Below, in pieces: positions 909 through 34,909 of a DNA stretch of 64,000 nucleotides (its first letter is position 1; each line of letters starts with the position of its first letter). The notes below the pieces were generated by a model, which saw only the letters and a list, made by a program, of their open reading frames with translations, was not told the origin of the DNA and did no database searches. The stretch is from Rhodothermales bacterium (lineage in GTDB: Bacteria; Bacteroidota; Rhodothermia; Rhodothermales; VXPQ01), in NCBI GenBank assembly GCA_040904565.1, contig JBBDTI010000075.1:42408-106407 (forward strand), given 5' to 3'. Both the position numbers and the translations under genes were made by a program.

Positions 909-2246
909 ATGCCAGTAGACGAAACGACAACACAGGATACCACGCTGGAAGGGGATACGTCTCAGGGGGTAACCCCTGTGGAAACGGTATCGCTGGTGGA
1001 GATGGGGCGCCGCGCGCTCGCGGCGAGCCGGACGCTCGCTCGCCTGAGTACGGTGGAGAAGAACGAGGCGCTGGCCGTGATAGCGGACGAGCTTGAAGCA
1101 TCTGCCTCCGATATTCTACGCGAGAATTCGCTGGACGTGGACGAGGGCAGGGAAAACGGTCTCAGCGAAGCGCTGCTCGATCGCTTGCTGCTTACGGAGG
1201 AGCGAATTCAGAGCCTTGCCGCCGACGTTCGGTCGGTCATCGACCTCTCCGATCCGGTCGGGTCCGAGTTCGGAGGGCGGAAGCTGCCGAACGGCATGCA
1301 GCTGGTCAAGCGCCGGATACCTCTCGGAGTCATCGGCGTGATCTATGAGGCGCGGCCCAACGTCACCATCGACATTGCCTCGCTCTGTCTCAAGACGGGC
1401 AACGCCGTCATCCTGCGCGGCGGAAGCGAAACGTTTCGTAGCAATATCGAGCTAATCGGGGTCATTCGACGCGCGCTTCGAAGGTGCGGCATACCGGAGG
1501 ACGCCGTTCAGTATATCGAGAATCCGGATCGTGCCCTTGTCGAAGAACTGCTGCGTCTCGACGAATACGTCGACATGATCGTCCCGCGGGGAGGTGCGGG
1601 TCTGCATCGACTGTGCCGGGAGCGAAGCACCATACCGGTCATTACGGGCGGGATCGGCATCTGTCACGTGTTCGTGGATGCGTCCGCCGATCAATCCAGA
1701 GCCGTCGACATTGTCGAAAACGCCAAGGTTCAGCGCCCGAGCGTGTGCAACGCGCTGGATACGCTGCTGGTGCACGCGGACGTAGCCGCACGCTTCTTGC
1801 CTGACGTGGCTCGTCGACTGCTTGAGAGCGGCGTGGAGTTCAGAGCGGATGACCGCGCGATGGCGATCCTGAAAGGCGTCGGCGGCCTTTCGCTTGAGCC
1901 GGCGGGTGACGACGACTTCGATCGGGAATGGCTCGGGCTTACGCTGGGTGTCCGCGTCGTCGACGACGTCGATGCGGCGATCGAGCATATTCAATCCCAC
2001 TCTACGGACCATTCCGACAGCATACTGACGAACGACTGGGACCATGCCAACGAGTTCGTCGACCGGGTGAATTCGGCGGCGGTGTACGTTAATGCGAGTA
2101 CGAGATTTACGGATGGCGGTCAGTTCGGTCTTGGTGCAGAGGTCGCCGTCAGTACGCAGAAGCTTCATGCCCGCGGGCCCATGGGACTGGAAGAGCTGAC
2201 GACGTATAAATGGATCGGATATGGGAACGGACACGTGCGCGAGTGA
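909..2246 (+). CDS. proA: Gamma-glutamyl phosphate reductase
   Basis: [65 protein letters not shown]; follows proB. Start uncertain (897 TTG or 909 ATG). Confidence 0.96.
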
Positions 2247-3163
2247 ACGATGATGATCTTCCTCCCTCTAACGATGTAATGGGCGTGCCGGACCTGTCTT
2301 TCGACCTAACTCTCAATCCACCTGCGCGGAGCGTACGCCTCGTCGAAGAGATGTGGCGAGAGGAGTCGCACCCTGAAATCCATGAGATTGTATCCCTGCT
2401 CGAGCACGATCCTGTGACGACGTTACACCTGCTGCGGCAGGTCAACTCGCCGATCTATGCACTGAAGCAGAGCGTAGCCTCCATCGATCGAGCTGCAACC
2501 ATGCTTGGATTCGACGCCGTGGCGAATACGATCTTCGTCGAGTCGCGCATTCCTAAGCCGGACGATCTGGCCACGGCGCGCGCGCAGCTTGCGTATGCGT
2601 ATCTGATCGGTTCGAGTGTTACGGCATCGTATATCGCGAGGGATCTCGCTCATGAGTTGGACATGGAACGGCCGGGAGTCATTCGAACCGCGGCACTGAT
2701 TCACCAGGTGGGTCGCATGGCCTTGCTGTCGTCGGACCCGCAGACGTATCTACCGCTCTGGACCGAGTCGACGACGCCGTCGGGAAGGGCGATAGCCGTT
2801 CCGCCCGGGATTGGCCGGGAAATCGTTCATTTTCGGACCGATTATACGCGTTATGGTGAGGACTTGGCGAAGAACTGGCACCTTCCCCCGGATCTTTCCG
2901 AGTCCATTCGCTACCATGCGGATCCGGAACGAACGGAGGACGCCGACCGCCACGTGGTCCTGGTCGTAGCGGTGTCGCAATATGCGGCACGCACGATGTT
3001 CGAGCCGGAGGAGCACCTCGATCGGGATCAATCGCGCGAACGTCTCCGAAAGGTAGCCAACGAGCTCGCGGAGGCCTATGAAGTGAGCAACAAGGCTATA
3101 GAAAACGTTCTGGAACAGTCCAAGAAGGAAGCCTATCAGGAAGCGATCGCCATGAAACTCTGA
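2243..3163 (+). CDS. HDOD-domain signal transduction protein
   Basis: [53 protein letters not shown]; GTG start overlaps proA stop (GTGA). Confidence 0.8.
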
Positions 3164-3297
3164 TCCATCCTACGAAGCACGAGAGAGCCTGGTTCGGGAA
3201 CCGGGTTCGTTGTACTTTGCAGGAGAGTGAGCCGGCCGATCTTCGTTTATGCAATAGCGCAATTCAGCTAACCATGCGTGTAGATAAGATGGTAGAT

Positions 3298-4113
3298 ATG
3301 GTAGAAAATAACACGAGCGTCCATTTCCCTCGGTTGATCGTTGCCGCGGTTTTGACGGTTGCTCTGTCCGTCGCTACCATCGGTTGCGAGTCCGACACCT
3401 CGGCGACGCAGGACGCGCCCAATGAGTCGAACGTGCTGAGCCAGGAAGAGCGTGATGCAGGGTGGGAGCTCCTCTTCGACGGTGAATCGTTTTCCGGGTG
3501 GCGAGGACTGGGGCGCGACGAGATCCCCGAGGGCCACTGGCAGATCGAGAACGGAACGATCCGGAAGGTTGCCGGCGGAGATGTGCCGACGGCGGCCGAC
3601 GGTCAACCCCTCGAAGGAGGTGACATATTGACCGAGGCGACGTTTGAAGACTTCGAGCTCGCCCTGGAGTGGCGCGTGAGTGAGGTGGCTAACAGTGGCG
3701 TCAAATATAACGTCTCCGAGGCCATGTCGACGTCATCCGAGCCGCAGCATGCGGCACTCGGCTTTGAATATCAGATTCTGGACGACGATCGGCATCCGGA
3801 TGCGCTGAACGGTCCAACCCGGACGGCCGGGGCGCTTTACGACATGATCCCGCCAAACGAAAATAAGGCACTGCAGCCCGTAGGCGAGTGGAACGAGGCG
3901 CGAATCGTGTTCGACGGATCCCGCGGCGAGCACTGGCTCAACGGAGAGCTCGTGCTCGAATACGATCTCGACTCGGAGCGATTCGCCAGCCTCCTTCAGG
4001 CAAGCAAGTACGCCGATATCGAAGGGTTTGCCGATCGGCGTACCGGTCACATCGTACTGCAGGATCACGGGGACGACGTCTGGTTTCGGGATATCAAAAT
4101 CCGGCGGTTGTGA
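3298..4113 (+). CDS. DUF1080 / 3-keto-disaccharide hydrolase family lipoprotein
   Basis: GWELLFDG, FEDFELALEWR, NSGVKY, EYQILDD, GEWN, GHIVLQDHG..VWFRDIKI; lipobox TIGC. Start could be 3274, 3289 or 3298. Confidence 0.88.
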   Translation: MVENNTSVHFPRLIVAAVLTVALSVATIGCESDTSATQDAPNESNVLSQEERDAGWELLFDGESFSGWRGLGRDEIPEGHWQIENGTIRKVAGGDVPTAADGQPLEGGDILTEATFEDFELALEWRVSEVANSGVKYNVSEAMSTSSEPQHAALGFEYQILDDDRHPDALNGPTRTAGALYDMIPPNENKALQPVGEWNEARIVFDGSRGEHWLNGELVLEYDLDSERFASLLQASKYADIEGFADRRTGHIVLQDHGDDVWFRDIKIRRL

Positions 4114-4123
4114 GCTGTACGCC

Positions 4124-4459
4124 ATGCCGGACTCAACCCATACAGGAGCTGCCGGGCATCTAACGAGCGAGCAGCTCCTATTCCTGAGCGCGTGGAGGCC
4201 TGTCGAGACGGATACGAGCCCTAGCGAAGGGGATCGGTGGACGTGCTTGAACTGCAGCGGCGACGTCGCCTATTTCCGTACGCTGGCACGGTTGGAAGGG
4301 GAGAAGGGGCAATACATGGTCCAGTGTCCTCTATGTGACCATCTTCAGGTCGTTCGACTGACGCCGGAGGAAGAACGTACCATATCCGTCGAATATGGCG
4401 GTCCGCACATCGATCGCTTTCTGACATTTCTGGATCGAAGAAATGCGGGCCACGATTGA
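4124..4459 (+). CDS. Hypothetical small protein with two CxxC pairs (zinc-ribbon-like)
   Basis: ATG 11 nt after the previous stop; WTCLNCSG...VQCPLCDH. Confidence 0.6.
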   Translation: MPDSTHTGAAGHLTSEQLLFLSAWRPVETDTSPSEGDRWTCLNCSGDVAYFRTLARLEGEKGQYMVQCPLCDHLQVVRLTPEEERTISVEYGGPHIDRFLTFLDRRNAGHD

Positions 4460-4607
4460 GTCGGTCGTGTGGAACGAGTCGGCTGGACCAATTGGGTCGT
4501 GCGGAACGTGCCGGGCGGCGGCTGGACGAAAGCGGCTGATTTAAGATGGCAGGGGGAGAAACCGATACTTTCGGCAAGACGCGCGTACCCCAACCCCGGC
4601 TTCTTAG

Positions 4608-4997
4608 ATGATGAAGGTCCTGATCGCTGAAGACAACGTTATCATGGCCTCCGCACTGAAGCGAATGCTTCAGCATATGGGATTCCATTACGTGCGTGAA
4701 GCAAATGACGGGGCGGAGGCTCTCAGCCTCCTCGCGCAGGAAAGCTACGATCTCGTCGTGGTGGACTGGATGCTGCCTTCGCTAAGCGGCGTCGCCATCG
4801 TTAAATGGATGCGCTCCAAGCGGCCGTACGCCACCTGCCCGGTGATTATGGTCACCATCAAGGATCAGCCCGAGGACGTGCTCCTCGCCGTGGAGTCCGG
4901 CGTCGACGAATACATGATCAAGCCCCTCGATAAGCACATCCTTCACGGAAAGGTCCAGAAGGTCATGAAGCAGCGTGCCGGCTTCGGTGCGGTTTGA
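4608..4997 (+). CDS. Single-domain (CheY-like) response regulator
   Basis: KVLIAEDN, VVDWMLP (phospho-Asp), IMVT, YMIKP. Confidence 0.9.
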   Translation: MMKVLIAEDNVIMASALKRMLQHMGFHYVREANDGAEALSLLAQESYDLVVVDWMLPSLSGVAIVKWMRSKRPYATCPVIMVTIKDQPEDVLLAVESGVDEYMIKPLDKHILHGKVQKVMKQRAGFGAV

Positions 4998-5006
4998 CGT
5001 AACGTC

Positions 5007-5435
5007 TCAGCCGGCTTGCAGCGTGGCATCTACGCTGATTTCCGCGCTTTTCTTGAAGAGCTGCGATACGGGACACGCATTCTTTGCGGCCTCTGCCGTT
5101 TTCTGAAAGGTATCCTCGTCGATTCCCGGTACGTCGGCGACGGTGACCAGACGAATTTCATTGATGGATGGGCCGTCGTCCGTCATGTTCAGATGGACGT
5201 GAGCCGTCGTATTCACGCTGTTGGGCGTATGTCCTGCTTTGGCCAATTCATTAGAAAACGCCATGGAGAAACATCCGGCATGTGCGGCCGCGAGCAACTC
5301 TTCAGGATTCGTCCCATCTCCTTCTTCGAATCGGGACACGAAGGAATAAGGCCCTTCCCAGCCGGCCATCTTCATGGTTCCCTTCCCACTTTTCAGGTCT
5401 CCTTTCCAACGTGCTTCCGCTTTACGAACAGGCAT
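5007..5435 (-). CDS. osmC: OsmC family peroxiredoxin
   Basis: RKAEARWKGDLKSGKG, TNPEELLAAAHAGCFSMA, AKNACPVS. Confidence 0.93.
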   Translation of the reverse strand: MPVRKAEARWKGDLKSGKGTMKMAGWEGPYSFVSRFEEGDGTNPEELLAAAHAGCFSMAFSNELAKAGHTPNSVNTTAHVHLNMTDDGPSINEIRLVTVADVPGIDEDTFQKTAEAAKNACPVSQLFKKSAEISVDATLQAG

Positions 5436-29131: not shown

Positions 29132-29216
29132 GTCCATGGCTGCCGTGACGGCACGGTGCCTGCTTCCCGTTCGCCGGCCGATGCTCCCGGTCACGTTTTT
29201 CGCCGGTCAGGTTCTC

Positions 29217-29774
29217 TCAGGCATTTTTCAGGACGTTCACCAGCGAAAACTCACTGATGAGCGCCTCGCTGAAGGCTCCGAGATCGGCGGGCGTACGGCT
29301 CGTGATGAGACCGTCGTCGACGACCACGGCCTGATCCACCCAATCTGCTCCCGCGTTCACCAGGTCCCTTCGGATAGCGGGATAGGAGGTAAGACGCCGG
29401 CTGCGCACGACGTCGGCATCGATAAGGATTTGCGGCCCGTGGCAGATGGCAGCTACGGGTTTCCCGTCCCCGAAAAACGTGCGTACGAAATCTACGGCGT
29501 GCTCGTTCATGCGAAGCGTATCGGGATTCATGACGCCGCCCGGCAGCAGCAGCGCGTCGAAATCATCCGACTCGGCCTCGGCGAGCGTCAGGTCGACCTC
29601 CACGTCGTCTCCCCAGTTCGACCGATCCCATCCAGTGATCGCATCCGAAGTTGGAGCGACAACGACCGGCTCCGCGCCGGCTGCTTCCAGCGCATTCCGG
29701 GGTTCGATGAGTTCCACCTGCTCAAAACCATCCGTGGCGAGAACGGCGACGCGGATTCCATCCAGATTCGGCAT
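29217..29774 (-). CDS. PfpI/DJ-1 family protein (YhbO-like)
   Basis: VAVLATDGFEQVEL, LLPGGVMNPD, AAICHGP, LITSRTPAD. Confidence 0.93.
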   Translation of the reverse strand: MPNLDGIRVAVLATDGFEQVELIEPRNALEAAGAEPVVVAPTSDAITGWDRSNWGDDVEVDLTLAEAESDDFDALLLPGGVMNPDTLRMNEHAVDFVRTFFGDGKPVAAICHGPQILIDADVVRSRRLTSYPAIRRDLVNAGADWVDQAVVVDDGLITSRTPADLGAFSEALISEFSLVNVLKNA

Positions 29775-30107
29775 GTGTGCGGTTTATCTCTCGAAAAGGT
29801 TGATCCGATATTTTCGCCCGTCGTCCGGCGATGCGGGGATACCGTACTGCAGTCGTTCGAACGCACGGCTCGTGATCGATCGCATAACGCATGTACGGAC
29901 GCGAACCGATCATTACATGGGTCGCTCTCCGGGCGTGTTCCACAAGAGCGGCGTGCCGAAAGCAACGACGGCGTGACATCTGGCCGTCACGCGCGGCGCG
30001 CGATGAATGTGTGCCGTACGTACGGTTGATTCCGGTGAACCGTGCGTATCTATTACGCGGCCGGCCATACGCCGAGGTATGGCGAGAAGGAGCAGAATCA
30101 CCGAACG

Positions 30108-30365
30108 CGCGATACGAGTACCGACGTCGAGCTCTATTATGATGGATTCGGTGACAGCTCCATTAACTTCGTCGTACGCTTCTGGATCGACTACAGGAAC
30201 CACAGTGACTACCTTGGGGCACGCAGCGACGCCATCAAGCGAATCAAGAAGGCCTTCGACGAGAACGGTATCACGATTCCATTTCCGATACGTACGCTCG
30301 ATTTCGGCGTGGTCGGCGGTGTGAACCTGGATGAGGTGCCGGCGAAAGGAAACGGAGGACTCTAG
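30108..30365 (+). pseudogene. C-terminal fragment of a small-conductance mechanosensitive channel (MscS)
   Basis: GFGDSSINFVVRFW...IKKAFDENGITIPFPIRTL; no TM or beta domain seen upstream in the + frames. Confidence 0.7.
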
Positions 30366-31309
30366 ACGTCGAGATAATTAGACGAGGAGTCATCCGGTTT
30401 GGCGTGCGTGTAGCGACTGGTGGTGGCGAGCGATTTATGACCGAGCGTTTCCTTTACGAGATGCACGGGCGCGCCTTCATCCAGCGAATGTGATGCGTGA
30501 GCATGTCTGAGCCAATGCGGTGACACCGCGTCTGAAAGTCCGGCCGCTCTCGCAGCCTCCTTGACGATTCTCCAGATCTGCTGCCTGGACAAAACACCTC
30601 CTTTTCTCGAGCGAAATACGGGATCTTCCGAGCCGCCAAATCCGCTGCTCCGTTCGGCCTCGCGCAGCCTCGTGAGCGCATTCCACGTTGGAGGCGAAAG
30701 GAGAATACTTCGATTCTTGTCTCCTTTCCCGCGAACCATGATCTGCCCCGTCGATTCACCGGAGGAAGACTTGCGTGGTGTGGCGGACCGCCACCGGAGA
30801 GCATTCAGTTCAGAAACACGGCCGCCGGACGCATAAAAGAGGCGTATCAGTACGCGATCTCGCTGCTTGTCGACCGCCTCCAGTAGCCGTTGCACGGCCT
30901 CCTGGTCGAGTATTCGTTCAGCCAGGTCGTCGGCAACAGTGGGCGTCTTGATGGCGGCCCCAACGTTGAAGACGAAGTATCCAATCTTTTGACCGAAGGA
31001 AAACAGGCTCTTTACAGTGGACAGTTTGCGAGCGATCGTAGCTTGCGCCAACCCACGATCGAACAACTCATCGGACCAGTCCTGAAGGTCCCGCAGCGTT
31101 ACGTCGGAAAGATCTGCGTCGTTAAGAGCTTCGTCGACGAATGAGAGGAATTGCGTCAGATCTCGCTCGTAGGCCTCTTGTGTACTGTCGCTTTTCCCAT
31201 GAAGCCAGAGGCGGATCAGTTGTTCGTCGTCGTCCGCCTCATTGCGATGTCGAACGCTACGATCTCGAACGACTATCTCCGTATCTTTATGACTCGAAAG
31301 AGATTTCAT
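30362..31309 (-). CDS. Tyrosine recombinase (Xer/integrase family)
   Basis: Complete catalytic set: SGGRVSEL (R), GKGDK (K), HWLRH (HxxR), LGH, SRY (Y); N-terminal core-binding domain; GAGGA upstream of ATG 31309. Confidence 0.93.
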   Translation of the reverse strand: MKSLSSHKDTEIVVRDRSVRHRNEADDDEQLIRLWLHGKSDSTQEAYERDLTQFLSFVDEALNDADLSDVTLRDLQDWSDELFDRGLAQATIARKLSTVKSLFSFGQKIGYFVFNVGAAIKTPTVADDLAERILDQEAVQRLLEAVDKQRDRVLIRLFYASGGRVSELNALRWRSATPRKSSSGESTGQIMVRGKGDKNRSILLSPPTWNALTRLREAERSSGFGGSEDPVFRSRKGGVLSRQQIWRIVKEAARAAGLSDAVSPHWLRHAHASHSLDEGAPVHLVKETLGHKSLATTSRYTHAKPDDSSSNYLDV

Positions 31310-31360
31310 GGCATCCTCAAATAGAACCGGCAATCCGGGGTACGTCGCGCCCCGTTCTGA

Positions 31361-31388
31361 ATGTAACATAATTAGTGTTATGTTACAT
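31361..31388. other. Symmetric dif-like recombination site (11-6-11)
   Basis: ATGTAACATAA-TTAGTG-TTATGTTACAT, perfect inverted arms; right arm matches the E. coli XerD arm TTATGTTAAAT at 10/11. Confidence 0.8.
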
Positions 31389-31731
31389 AAGCAAGCCGGA
31401 GTGGCCTAAATAAGGCCTGCACAACGGGTTCGGGCCATCGCCTATATGGTACCGGTCACTCATCGTCACTATACGCGACGCATCGTCACTCTTCGTGAAG
31501 CGTCCTCCGGCATAGCGAACGCTCGGCACCATGTACCGTGGTACAACCGGCCCGGGTGTATCGGCACCTGCGAGGCCACGTTGTGTTGGGTCTAATTGGG
31601 TCCGGCTGGGCCTGGCTGGACGGAGCCGAATTGAACCACGCCGTACGGAGCACGCGAAAAGGTGCGCTCCAGGTGCGATCCGGCGGCCGGCTCGGGCAGA
31701 CCGTTCTATTGCGATGACCTCACGTTCTACG

Positions 31732-32937
31732 TTAAGTGCCCTTCGCGTCCGCTGCAGCCACGTCCGCCGGATAGCGGAAGCTGGCGGCGAGGCTCCGGTT
31801 CGTCGGCATCGTATCGGATATCAGGGCGTGGACCGTTCCGCCATGCTTTACCGTGTGCACGGCGGCGAGATCGAGCAGGTCTTCATCACCTGTTTTATGC
31901 TCGTCGTGCAGCTCGACGGAGTTGTTGTCGGCATCGTAAAATCCCCATAGATGCGAACCCATTTCGACAAACAACGTGTCGATGCGTCCGTAGACGGCCG
32001 CGGGGATTACTTCACGGATGTCATCGGACGCAAGTCGATCGCCGTTTCCAAGAAGCTGCATGAATCTGTCGAGTGCAGCACGCTGCGTCTCCATGAACCG
32101 CGGCTCAACGATGTCCCACGCTTTCGCGTGCATTTCCTTCGGTTTCAGGTGATCGGGATTTCCGGCGACGATCGAATCGTCGACGAGATTGCCGTATCCG
32201 TTCACTACCCGGTAGATCGGCAGATAATATTCTACCCCTGCCAGTACGAGCGGCGCCGAGTTCTCTCGCAGCACGTTACGCACTCCTTCATCCACGCCAT
32301 GAAAGAAGCGGATCAATTGATCGTGCGGACGATGCGGTTCGTCGTCGGAGTTGACCCCGTGGCCGTGAAATATGGCATCCTGCCTACCACCGGCCACGTT
32401 GGCAGTACGGTTCTGAAGCGACCGCTGGAATTCCTCCTTGGCGAGGACGTCGACCAGACTCTCCGGAAGCTCCTTTGATTCGATTTCGCTCATGCTGTAA
32501 TGCGTACCTTGAAAGAGACGCACCTTGTTCTGACTGAGTGCAAGCAGATAGAACTCATTGTTCGCTGCCAGAAGCGGAAAGAGCGGCTTGATGTGAAATC
32601 GCTTGCCCGTAAAGACAAATTCGTCGAAGTCGACGGGCAGGCGGTAGAACCGGGCCTCATCGGGCGTCATGAAGGCCGCAAAGCCGTCACTCTGATCGAG
32701 CCAAAACGAAGGGCGCTCCGTTAACGTAGCCAGCGGCTCGAGCAAGGCATCGATCTCCGCATCGCGATAGCCCTGCTCGGCTAGCTCTCGCCGGGCTGTC
32801 TTGAGCAGATTCTTTAACCGAATCGGATTCTGTGACAGCTCGGATTCGACGTGATACGTAGGCATGTAAATCGAAACGCAGGGCTCGCCTTTGAGGGCCG
32901 CCAGTTCCGTGAGTTGCTCCTTACTAAAGAGATCCAT
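31732..32937 (-). CDS. Bacterial archaeo-eukaryotic release factor family (baeRF3/7-like) protein
   Basis: PCVSIYMPT, PIRLKNLL, RFHIKPL, FYLLALSQNKVRLF, PLVLAGV, AVYGRIDTLF, DLLDLAAVHT..GG.V. Confidence 0.75.
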   Translation of the reverse strand: MDLFSKEQLTELAALKGEPCVSIYMPTYHVESELSQNPIRLKNLLKTARRELAEQGYRDAEIDALLEPLATLTERPSFWLDQSDGFAAFMTPDEARFYRLPVDFDEFVFTGKRFHIKPLFPLLAANNEFYLLALSQNKVRLFQGTHYSMSEIESKELPESLVDVLAKEEFQRSLQNRTANVAGGRQDAIFHGHGVNSDDEPHRPHDQLIRFFHGVDEGVRNVLRENSAPLVLAGVEYYLPIYRVVNGYGNLVDDSIVAGNPDHLKPKEMHAKAWDIVEPRFMETQRAALDRFMQLLGNGDRLASDDIREVIPAAVYGRIDTLFVEMGSHLWGFYDADNNSVELHDEHKTGDEDLLDLAAVHTVKHGGTVHALISDTMPTNRSLAASFRYPADVAAADAKGT

Positions 32938-33223
32938 ATGCGTACACGGTTTGAGATAAATACCGGCAAAGCTACATGGGTTAATATGCAATTCCGCGGA
33001 TTAGGTTTGATCGGGCCGTGTGACGTTGATGTGAGACTCGACCGCTTCGGTCCGCACTCTCGCGGTGTCCCGGACCCGGCTACAGTCAGGATGCGGCATC
33101 CCGCACAGCTGGAATGGAAGCGGCCGGACCGCCAGGCGGCTGCGGGCGTATCGATTGCGGGGATACCCTACATTTTCTTACACGACGTCGCCGCTTCGAA
33201 GTAGCTTTTCGCGCTCTAATCGC

Positions 33224-33925
33224 ATGGAAGACCTAACACAGTGGGTACAGTATTCCGACCATCTGTTCGAGCACGCCGTGCGTATCGCCGTCGCCCTGGT
33301 GTGTGGGCTCATGCTCGGTATCGAGCGCGAGCGCAAGGATAAACCTGCCGGAATGCGAACGATTCTTCTGATTACGCTCGGAGCGGCGCTGTTCATGATC
33401 ATGAGCAACATCGTCACCGTGGCGTACGAATGGCCGGTCGAGACGCGGGTCGACCCATCCCGTATTGCCGCAGGGGTCGTGACCGGCATCGGTTTTCTGG
33501 GTGCCGGCACGATCATCCAGGCGCGCGGCTCGGTCCACGGTCTTACGACGGCTGCCGTCATATGGGTGTCGGCAGGCATCGGAATGTGCGCCGGCATGGG
33601 CTACGCGGCCATGGCTTTTTTCTTCACGGCGATCGTCCTGCTGACGCTCATCGCCATGGATCCGCTGCGTCACCGGCTTGCTCGCTTGGGCAACCGGTAT
33701 GAGTTGCTCGTGATTGCACCGAATGATTCGCTCGTGCTCGAACGGATCCGCTACGTTCTCCTCGGCCACGACGTACACGACGACGACGTTGAACTCCGCG
33801 TCATCCCCGAAGACGAGCTCGAGATCGCCTTCGTGTATTTCGGATATGGCGGCGCCGCCCTGCGTCTTCTGGAGGCGCTCGCCCGTATCGAAGGCGTACA
33901 CGGCAGGCGCACAACCAGCGAATAA
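33224..33925 (+). CDS. MgtC/SapB family membrane protein
   Basis: GIERERKDKPAGMRT, DPSRIAAGVVTGIGFLGAG, GLTTAAVIW. Confidence 0.92.
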   Translation: MEDLTQWVQYSDHLFEHAVRIAVALVCGLMLGIERERKDKPAGMRTILLITLGAALFMIMSNIVTVAYEWPVETRVDPSRIAAGVVTGIGFLGAGTIIQARGSVHGLTTAAVIWVSAGIGMCAGMGYAAMAFFFTAIVLLTLIAMDPLRHRLARLGNRYELLVIAPNDSLVLERIRYVLLGHDVHDDDVELRVIPEDELEIAFVYFGYGGAALRLLEALARIEGVHGRRTTSE

Positions 33926-33970
33926 CGAGTTTAACCCGCGCGCGCATTCGATCGCCAATCAACTCTTCTG

Positions 33971-34909
33971 ATGGAGCCGTTCCTCATTCTCACCGGACCA
34001 ACCGCCGTCGGCAAGACGGCATTGAGCATGCAGCTGGCCGCCGAGCTCGACGCTGAGATCATCTCAGCCGACAGCCGCCAGGTGTACCGTGAGCTCAATG
34101 TCGGGACCGCCAAGCCGGATGAACAAGACCTGCAAAGGGTGCGACATCACTTTATTAACGAACGGTTCCTGGGCGAAGCCTTCACAGCAGGGATCTTCCA
34201 GCGTGAGGCCTACGCACGAATCGAGGACGTGCTCGATCGCGGCCGAACGCCCCTCATCGTGGGCGGATCGACGCTGTACCTGAAGGCGCTCAAGCACGGG
34301 CTGGCGAACATCCCCGACATCCCGGAGGACGTGCGCGCCGACATCCGGAAGCGGCTGGACGACGAAGGACCCGAAACGCTCTACGCCGCGCTGCAGTCCG
34401 TCGACCCCCAAGCCGCCGAGACCATGGATCCGACAAAGTCACAGCGCATCGCTCGAGCCCTCGAGGTCTATGAGGCCACAGGTACACCCATCACGGCGTA
34501 TCACGACGAGCAGCCTCCTCCCCCCTATGCCTTCCTGACTGTCGTTCTGCATCGAGATCGACGCCAGCTCTACGACCGCATCAACCGCCGCGTCGACCGT
34601 ATGCTTGACGACGGTCTCATCGAGGAGGTCCGGCAGCTTCTCGACGCCGGGCACGACCTCTCGATCAACCTCCTCCGGACCATCGGCTACAAGGAGCCGG
34701 TCGCGTACCTGCGCGGTGAGATCTCCCACGACGAAATGGTTCGGCGCATCAAGCGGAACACCCGCAGATATGCCAAGCGGCAGCTTACGTGGTTCCGCCG
34801 GGACGAGGACAACGTGTGGGTCGACGCCGCGGCCGATTCCAACGATCTCCGATCGGACATCCGTCAGCTGCTCGCACAGGCATCCGACGTCAGCTCGCCC
34901 GCCTCGTAG
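33971..34909 (+). CDS. miaA: tRNA dimethylallyltransferase
   Basis: GPTAVGKT, SADSRQVY, GTAKP, VGGSTLY, TIGYKE, RYAKRQLTWF. Confidence 0.97.
   Translation: MEPFLILTGPTAVGKTALSMQLAAELDAEIISADSRQVYRELNVGTAKPDEQDLQRVRHHFINERFLGEAFTAGIFQREAYARIEDVLDRGRTPLIVGGSTLYLKALKHGLANIPDIPEDVRADIRKRLDDEGPETLYAALQSVDPQAAETMDPTKSQRIARALEVYEATGTPITAYHDEQPPPPYAFLTVVLHRDRRQLYDRINRRVDRMLDDGLIEEVRQLLDAGHDLSINLLRTIGYKEPVAYLRGEISHDEMVRRIKRNTRRYAKRQLTWFRRDEDNVWVDAAADSNDLRSDIRQLLAQASDVSSPAS

Follow-up and report, generated by a model that had tools for sequence, protein, structure and literature searches.

Xer/dif modules that operate with a single recombinase are known in the form of XerS/difSL, XerH/difH and XerA (PMC5357621, PMC2731167), and XerL of the Legionellales has been described as well (PMC9765430). 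According to these accounts of single-recombinase systems, difSL and difH always lie near their own xer gene (PMC5357621, PMC2731167, PMC9765430), and the papers on XerS, XerH and XerL raise the idea that such systems are acquired as modules (PMC5357621, PMC2731167, PMC9765430). Here, we analysed a 64,000-nucleotide stretch of DNA from a Rhodothermales bacterium (the window), which corresponds to G000:C75:42408-106407, that is, to part of the 247,658-bp contig C75 of the source draft genome G000 (4.02 Mb, 95 contigs, 94.9% complete; other genomes are likewise given by our own numbers). The window contains a 28-bp palindrome next to a gene for an Xer-like tyrosine recombinase, which we refer to as P-type. 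We conclude that the two very probably constitute a single-catalytic-recombinase Xer/dif cassette at the Rhodothermales terminus, the one-enzyme form of a known system that is apparently undescribed for this group. It is very likely that the palindrome is the dif site of the chromosome and that the neighbouring gene encodes the recombinase acting there. An original prediction, made from this DNA alone, had proposed a single-recombinase Xer/dif module resolving chromosome dimers, and all of the sequence-based tests that were run supported it. The interpretation is well supported because of the position of the site at the terminus, its uniqueness, its conservation, in which the arms co-vary symmetrically, the lack of canonical XerC/XerD and the presence of an FtsK gamma domain.

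The palindrome spans positions 31361-31388 of the window, in an intergenic region, and has no strand. It comprises a left arm, ATGTAACATAA (31361-31371), predicted to bind one recombinase monomer, a central spacer, TTAGTG (31372-31377), the predicted region of strand exchange, and a right arm, TTATGTTACAT (31378-31388). The arms of the complete site, ATGTAACATAA-TTAGTG-TTATGTTACAT, are complementary at 11 of 11 positions about the 6-bp spacer and its G+C content is 6/28 (21%) versus 61% for contig C75, confirming the AT-rich, perfect 11-6-11 inverted repeat that had been read in it. The claim that both arms match the XerD arm of E. coli dif at 10 of 11 positions was also correct, as judged by the E. 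coli K12 dif sequence printed in PMC2731167 (GGTGCGCATAATGTATATTATGTTAAAT). As the spacer is asymmetric, the site has polarity. It is the only match to itself in the window at up to three mismatches, and none of 100 shuffled windows had a match. Across the 4.02-Mb draft the exact 11-bp arm is present at this site alone, with three isolated one-mismatch half-sites elsewhere (6 matches, versus 13 for a reversed-pattern control). Two tandem 20-nt direct repeats (ACTCATCGTCACTATACGCG / ACGCATCGTCACTCTTCGTG; 31458-31497) were observed 70 bp past the site, within the 340-bp intergenic region.

The site lies within a GC-skew switch from plus to minus, of the replication-terminus type, that was located at 30001-34000 of the window (no strand) from the skew of both window and contig. 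Counting along the contig as far as the site bin, 14 of 15 bins have positive skew; all 34 bins to the right of the site have negative skew, and the cumulative maximum falls within the 5-kb bin holding the site. A plus-to-minus change is of the terminus type regardless of contig orientation. The site was at the cumulative skew maximum in all four Rhodothermales tested, which comprise the G000 contig and the genomes G031, G038 and G082. In the 5.9-Mb chromosome of G031, the maximum is in the 10-kb bin with the site, whereas in the 3.55-Mb genome of G038 it is at the bin ending at 2,300,000, with the core of the site starting at 2,300,002 and the gene 29.5 kb further on, and it is therefore the site rather than the gene that marks the skew switch. 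The ten largest frames in the first 20 kb between site and gene in G038 are all ordinary genes, including those for an MFS transporter, an oxidoreductase, an aldehyde dehydrogenase, aminotransferases and a type IX secretion cargo protein. G082, whose skew was read over 40 kb to either side, has two cassette copies: the closer orthologue has its site at 127,187 with the maximum at the bin ending at 127,000, whereas skew is negative on either outer side of the second copy (1,558,255).

Conservation of the palindrome was evident among relatives. Orthologues of at least 50% identity were found in four of 30 relatives, each with an 11-6-11 site a short way upstream, and in several the arms have changed symmetrically, for instance to AGGTAACATAA...TTATGTTACCT in G001 and ATGCAACATAA...TTATGTTGCAT in G021. 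A one-genome-per-species scan covered 529 relatives, of which the best 80 loci were examined and their site classes assigned by eye: 52 have the site within 450 bp upstream, eight have it 0.7-3.2 kb upstream, five have it 5-30 kb upstream based on a genome-wide pattern search, and for 15 no family-type site was seen in the available DNA, two of these having less than 210 bp of upstream DNA. The 14 specified bases of AACATAA-N6-TTATGTT have exactly one match in each of the ten complete gene-bearing Rhodothermales chromosomes, in every case on the upstream side of the gene. Most spacers of the relatives read TTAACC or TTATCC on one strand or the other, including in most of family f15. Sister genera differ in how the spacer is oriented with respect to the recombinase gene, with TTATTG in G004 and CAATAA in G001. 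On another Rhodothermales chromosome, G035:C1, nine scattered one-mismatch matches to the core were seen (e.g., 508805, 761309 and 3575541), several of them AACATA-CTGATC-TTTATGTT, and these may mark the boundaries of a repeated element.

Co-variation of the arms was assessed with 59 aligned sites, 56 of which are distinct, by pairing columns 1-11 with 18-28. Ten of the 11 arm pairs have changed on both sides, and there are 55 cells with a two-sided change compared to a shuffled mean of 17.7, a level reached in 0 of 500 shuffles, with 89% of cells pairing in register versus 25-52% in slid registers, although the measure is inflated since symmetry was one of the criteria by which the sites outside Rhodothermales had been chosen. 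The distance from site to gene varies from 4 bp to 29.5 kb over orthologous loci; hence autoregulation through a site embedded in the promoter, which the original prediction had envisaged, is not a conserved feature. Hitchhiking elements of the IMEX type were considered for the 21 Rhodothermales loci whose site is distant or unseen and were rejected, there being no second full site or clear half-site by the gene. In viral DNA, AACATAA-N6-TTATGTT was found in at least 116 stretches, 101 of those listed having a G+C content of ~20-40%, and no relative of the recombinase was identified near the core among the matches listed (tblastn, E <= 1e-5, the fetched stretches being mostly AT-rich).

The P-type gene (30362-31309, minus strand) encodes 315 residues plus a stop and was identified by its open reading frame (ORF), Pfam matches, profile scores, catalytic residues and position in a tree. 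Its ATG at 31309 is 51 bp from the site, but the start is uncertain as there is an in-frame TTG at 31333 and an in-frame ATG at 31369, inside the left arm, that would give a 335-residue ORF. The 315-residue protein has Pfam matches to Phage_integrase (1e-30) and the SAM-like Phage_int_SAM_1. Residues R164, K195, H265, R268, H291 and Y300, which represent the full R-K-H-R-H/W-Y set, are invariant in five of five orthologues, so that the recombinase with all its catalytic residues and a site 51 bp upstream is as originally described. The protein scored 194.6 bits against the XerC model TIGR02224 (cut-off 335.15), 193.7 bits against the XerD model TIGR02225 (193.5 in the genome search; cut-off 329.6) and 79.7 bits against the integron integrase model TIGR02249 (cut-off 265), and the closest solved chain to it is that of E. 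coli XerD (99.4 bits).

No canonical XerD-family match above the cut-off was found in any of the 31 genomes searched (G000 and 30 relatives). The XerD model matched nine frames in G000, none above the cut-off, and the P-type protein scored best of these; in G031, a complete chromosome, the only Xer-like proteins are the P-type protein and a truncated dead paralogue. A search of G000 for xerC/xerD and further dif copies therefore returned no canonical XerC or XerD and only one site, and a canonical XerCD with an asymmetric dif at the skew switch, the arrangement that would have pointed to a mobile-element resolvase, was looked for and not found. An FtsK gamma domain (PF09397; 98.6 bits) is encoded at G000:C75:21238-21423, in an 876-residue frame 52 kb from the site.

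The recombinase is not alone in G000, and "lone" was an overstatement in the original prediction. The other eight frames matched by the XerD model are a recombinase trio, three phage-type integrases, a decayed P-type copy and an Xer-like paralogue that we refer to as B-type. The B-type gene (G000:C72:92114-93196) encodes a protein that has neither catalytic arginine but keeps the His and Tyr: its Arg I region has GG-LSE in place of G-L-R-x-S-E and its Arg II region HSLTHT in place of HxLRH. Proteins with the same features are found in 11 of 11 Rhodothermales genomes examined, whichever cassette these have, and G031 has a twelfth, truncated copy. The G008 copy scored 121.6 bits against XerC and 106.4 bits against XerD, and the G000 copy 116.3 bits against XerD. 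The B-type paralogue may be a non-catalytic partner or regulator. The trio consists of three tandem tyrosine recombinase genes at ~1781-5008 of the 5,530-bp contig G000:C52 and has the appearance of a recombinase-in-trio mobile element.

Relatives without the P-type gene have a second Xer-like protein, A-type, with intact catalytic residues, whose gene has a perfect palindrome of its own, ACTTCCGATAA-CAGTTC-TTATCGGAAGT, 155 bp to 1.7 kb upstream (e.g., L197:409-436, which is G008:C1:146408-146435). The A-type site is unique in G007, G008, G010 and G013, although in G013 a degenerate second version of it is found at a distance of 390 bp. The strongly positive skew of G008 ends at 140 kb, ahead of the A-type site (146.4 kb) and of the cumulative maximum (200 kb), and that site is therefore in the terminus region, albeit less exactly placed. 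An asymmetric dif candidate in the same genome (ACATAA-N6-TTATGT with one mismatch, at 1,612,579) was rejected, as the 400 kb surrounding it have no terminus-type switch and only an origin-type minimum near 1.69 Mb.

The two cassettes have a largely mutually exclusive distribution. This was determined by counting over 285 genomes of the order, as read from two match tables, in which the P-type was found in 87 (E <= 1e-50) and the A-type in 161 (E <= 1e-40). The P-type and A-type are present in 36 and none, respectively, of the 38 genomes of family f15, in three and none of the three of family f4, and in two and 15 of the 18 of family f1 when G000 is excluded. Full-length P-type proteins (E <= 1e-80) were found in 62 genomes, 57 of which lack an A-type at E <= 1e-40. 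Twenty-five genomes are in both the P-type (E <= 1e-50) and A-type (E <= 1e-40) lists, and 21 of those belong to family f27 and have weaker, partial matches. In all five f27 genomes for which both coordinates are listed (G237, G204, G250, G255 and G256), the P and A genes are in tandem; in G237 (L265, G237:C2:70471-72562), representing one f27 genus, A-like and P-like genes flank a slightly asymmetric site, ATGAAATCTAA-TAAGCG-TTATGTTTCAT. The f27 tandem may be a variant cassette with two recombinases. In G167 (L256, G167:C131:12980-15489), a P-type gene and its site (13925) adjoin an A-type gene and the genes are divergently transcribed, a layout that may be an intermediate of cassette replacement.

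In a tree of 45 sequences, whose references were three canonical XerC/XerD proteins, the P, A and B types form three separate clades, each with support of 100/99, and 11 of the 12 Rhodothermales P-type rows group together with weak support (91/52). The P clade is apart from the three canonical proteins, to which the comparison is limited. Outside the order, relatives at 45-55% identity were found in at least eight phyla, mostly with their own 11-6-11 site, in Planctomycetota, Chloroflexota, Cyanobacteriota, Armatimonadota, Acidobacteriota, two metagenome-assembled genomes (MAGs) of delta-proteobacterial/Myxococcota affiliation and Orenia. The family is hence no speciality of this lineage. A full-text literature search, most subscription journals being outside its reach, found no paper on the P-type family or on a Rhodothermales Xer/dif system. 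In two cyanobacterial MAGs the P-type protein is the best XerD-family match, and in one of them the only match. Prediction of dif is reported to have succeeded in 19 of 19 Bacteroidetes and to have failed in Cyanobacteria and Planctomycetes (PMC3025954), and a separate "Cyan" recombinase subgroup has been noted (PMC8138268). As the only Xer-like gene there, the cassette may be the dif/Xer system that profile searches have missed in some cyanobacteria; its being the best or only Xer-like protein in two genomes, together with the failure of dif prediction reported for the phylum (PMC3025954), provides a concrete candidate for a site there.

A number of observations weigh against the interpretation of the palindrome and P-type gene as the dimer resolution system. 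Some concern the source genome and its order. A missing xer gene is conceivable in a draft of 95 contigs and 94.9% completeness, although the complete G031 gives the same picture. G000 has a decayed second P-type copy (G000:C94:13449-14228; 51% identity) with an in-frame TAG and an altered C-terminus, which has only the half-site-like ATGTAACAC upstream and adjoins a phage-type integrase at C94:11664-12989. Five genomes hold both a P-type (E <= 1e-80) and an A-type, and two P-type copies are present in G082 and three other genomes of the order. Words that might orient FtsK are weakly polarised, the best being GGGAGGG at 77% (96:28) and GGAGCAGG at 76% (78:24); the best polar 7- and 8-mers are G-rich and 70-83% polarised over three genomes. 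The searches of distant-site loci and viral DNA described above yielded neither hitchhiking elements nor phage-borne copies of the site, and the inflation of the co-variation measure counts on this side too. The conserved B-type paralogue may mean that "single" is wrong in a structural sense. Binding, catalysis and a dimer-resolution phenotype, as well as the homotetramer and FtsK dependence, are proposed by analogy with XerS, XerH, XerA and XerL.

Other observations of this kind come from outside the order, where canonical XerC and XerD are found alongside the cassette family in Planctomycetes, Acidobacteria, Armatimonadota and a delta-proteobacterium. An XerD above the cut-off (343-377 bits) and a second canonical-type match (266-336 bits) were found in Botrimarina, a Planctomycetaceae MAG, a Bryobacterales genome, an Armatimonadota MAG and a delta-proteobacterial MAG. 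There are three P-type copies in the Bryobacterales genome, the Botrimarina cassette is within 400 kb of uniformly negative skew, and the skew of the Planctomycetaceae MAG is too weak to read. Given this coexistence with XerCD, the multiple copies and the lack of a skew switch, the family as a whole is not bound to dimer resolution and appears to be horizontally mobile. The terminus role appears to be specific to lineages without XerCD, and it cannot be assumed for the whole family because in Planctomycetes with canonical XerCD the cassette is not at the skew switch.

Potentially, these findings have a common basis in a self-contained, horizontally mobile "dif cassette", spread over at least eight phyla, that can take over dimer resolution. 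By this tentative proposal, which we consider possible but put forward with less confidence than the assignment of the dif site itself, the cassette displaced an older A-type one (ACTTCCGATAA-N6-TTATCGGAAGT) in Rhodothermales, G167 would have been caught mid-swap, with the incoming gene and its site immediately ahead of the old gene, the B-type protein would be a conserved component without catalytic function in both Rhodothermales cassettes, and the cassette would have a different role where it sits beside XerCD in Planctomycetes and Acidobacteria.

Of the alternatives to a single-recombinase system, the one that survives best is a two-protein system in which the P-type and arginine-less B-type proteins act together at the site, the latter as a non-catalytic subunit with, for instance, an FtsK-contacting or regulatory function, producing an XerC/D-like architecture with one active enzyme. 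That the B-type has been kept in all 11 Rhodothermales genomes irrespective of cassette, has a clade of its own and scores like an Xer protein is consistent with this, since conservation of a dead recombinase indicates that it retains a DNA- or protein-binding role. However, the arms are perfectly symmetric in both cassette types, leaving no separate arm for a second protein, the B-type frame of G031 is truncated before the His/Tyr region and yet the site of that genome is still at the skew switch, and the B-type gene is unlinked to the site, being on another contig in G000. We therefore regard a two-protein system as unlikely.

Still less probable, in our estimation, is that the P-type gene and its site are a selfish or accessory cassette, i.e., a horizontally mobile integration or resolution module that is in the terminus by chance while dimers are resolved by another route. 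The breadth of the family and its patchiness across families of the order accord with such an element, as do its coexistence with canonical XerCD in five of ten non-Rhodothermales or comparison genomes (G032, G033, G034, G301 and G302), its multiple copies in G033, its location off the skew switch in G032 and the phage-type integrase adjoining the decayed copy in G000. Mobility of that kind does not readily account for the situation in Rhodothermales, where the position at the skew switch is held exactly by the site rather than by the gene, even with 29.5 kb of ordinary metabolic genes in between, and where the P-type is single-copy and near-universal in whole families such as f15. In addition, G000 and G031 yielded no further Xer candidate competent for catalysis, and the P-type excludes the A-type cassette, whose own site is also in the terminus region of G008. 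A mere operator for a dimeric transcription factor or a self-repressing recombinase, as might be imagined for a palindrome so close ahead of a start codon (51 bp in G000 and 4-100 bp in many orthologues), is highly improbable, as the site is 0.7-30 kb from the gene and still intact and unique at 13 Rhodothermales loci, as its 11-6-11 geometry and inner ATAA/TTAT are those of dif sites and it tracks the skew switch, and as no sigma-70-type promoter (or terminator) was found around it at 31200-31800 by a scan that is blind to Bacteroidota-type promoters.

Among nine neighbouring frames that were scanned, no phage, transposase or conjugation families were found, in agreement with the original prediction; the frames include those for a P-type ATPase, an MscS fragment, a baeRF-family protein, MgtC, MiaA, a TetR regulator and a methyltransferase. 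In the stretch that adjoins the recombinase gene on its downstream side (29136-30365), a 297-residue frame without a Pfam match is followed by a 107-residue frame matching only the C-terminal domain of MscS, and the two may represent a split or frameshifted mechanosensitive channel gene.

If the single-recombinase interpretation is correct, each of the identical 11-bp arms would be bound by one P-type monomer and the two sister sites on a chromosome dimer would synapse as a homotetramer. Strand exchange over the 6-bp spacer would then convert the dimer into two monomers, and FtsK probably controls the reaction at the septum, given that the gene for an FtsK with a gamma domain is 52 kb away. 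The Rhodothermales thereby gain an exact marker of the terminus and a dimer-resolution system open to testing, whose recombinase is a clade of its own. The swapping of two alternative gene-plus-site cassettes within one order represents direct comparative evidence for modular acquisition. Further, a symmetric 28-bp site and a small recombinase could serve as a simple orthogonal recombination tool.

Comparison with the described systems shows a cassette that shares features with each of them. As in XerS/difSL of streptococci and lactococci, one recombinase whose gene is beside the terminus site forms a single module (PMC5357621, PMC2731167), but difSL is described as an atypical 31-bp site with an 11-bp centre (PMC5357621), in contrast to the 28 bp, 6-bp spacer and identical arms found here, and the P-type protein scored only 62.5 bits against the XerS model NF003462 (cut-off 267). 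The XerH/difH system of Helicobacter and Campylobacter likewise has one recombinase, linked to its site in most species, and a terminus location (PMC3325230, PMC2731167); the P-type match to the single solved XerH chain, 5jjv, was 48.4 bits, weaker than that to XerD (99.4 bits) or XerA, and the site here is fully symmetric. XerL/dif of the Legionellales, compared by its description only, resembles the cassette in having one recombinase, long uninterrupted inverted-repeat arms and an AT-rich, non-coding site near the skew maximum, and differs in that xerL and dif of L. pneumophila are more than 400 kb apart (PMC9765430), whereas gene and site are ancestrally adjacent here. Archaeal XerA/dif also has one recombinase, a site of two 11-bp inverted repeats with a 6-bp centre and, in some species, an xerA-dif module, although XerA is reported to be FtsK-independent (PMC5357621) and the cassette has a bacterial host with an FtsK gamma domain; the P-type protein scored 163.7 bits against the XerA model NF040815, below its cut-off of 220. 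Lastly, the cassette has in common with XerC/XerD of E. coli the 28-bp 11-6-11 geometry, the 10/11 match of both arms to the XerD arm and XerD as its closest solved structure, but appears to rely on one active enzyme and identical arms where E. coli has two paralogues and different arms.

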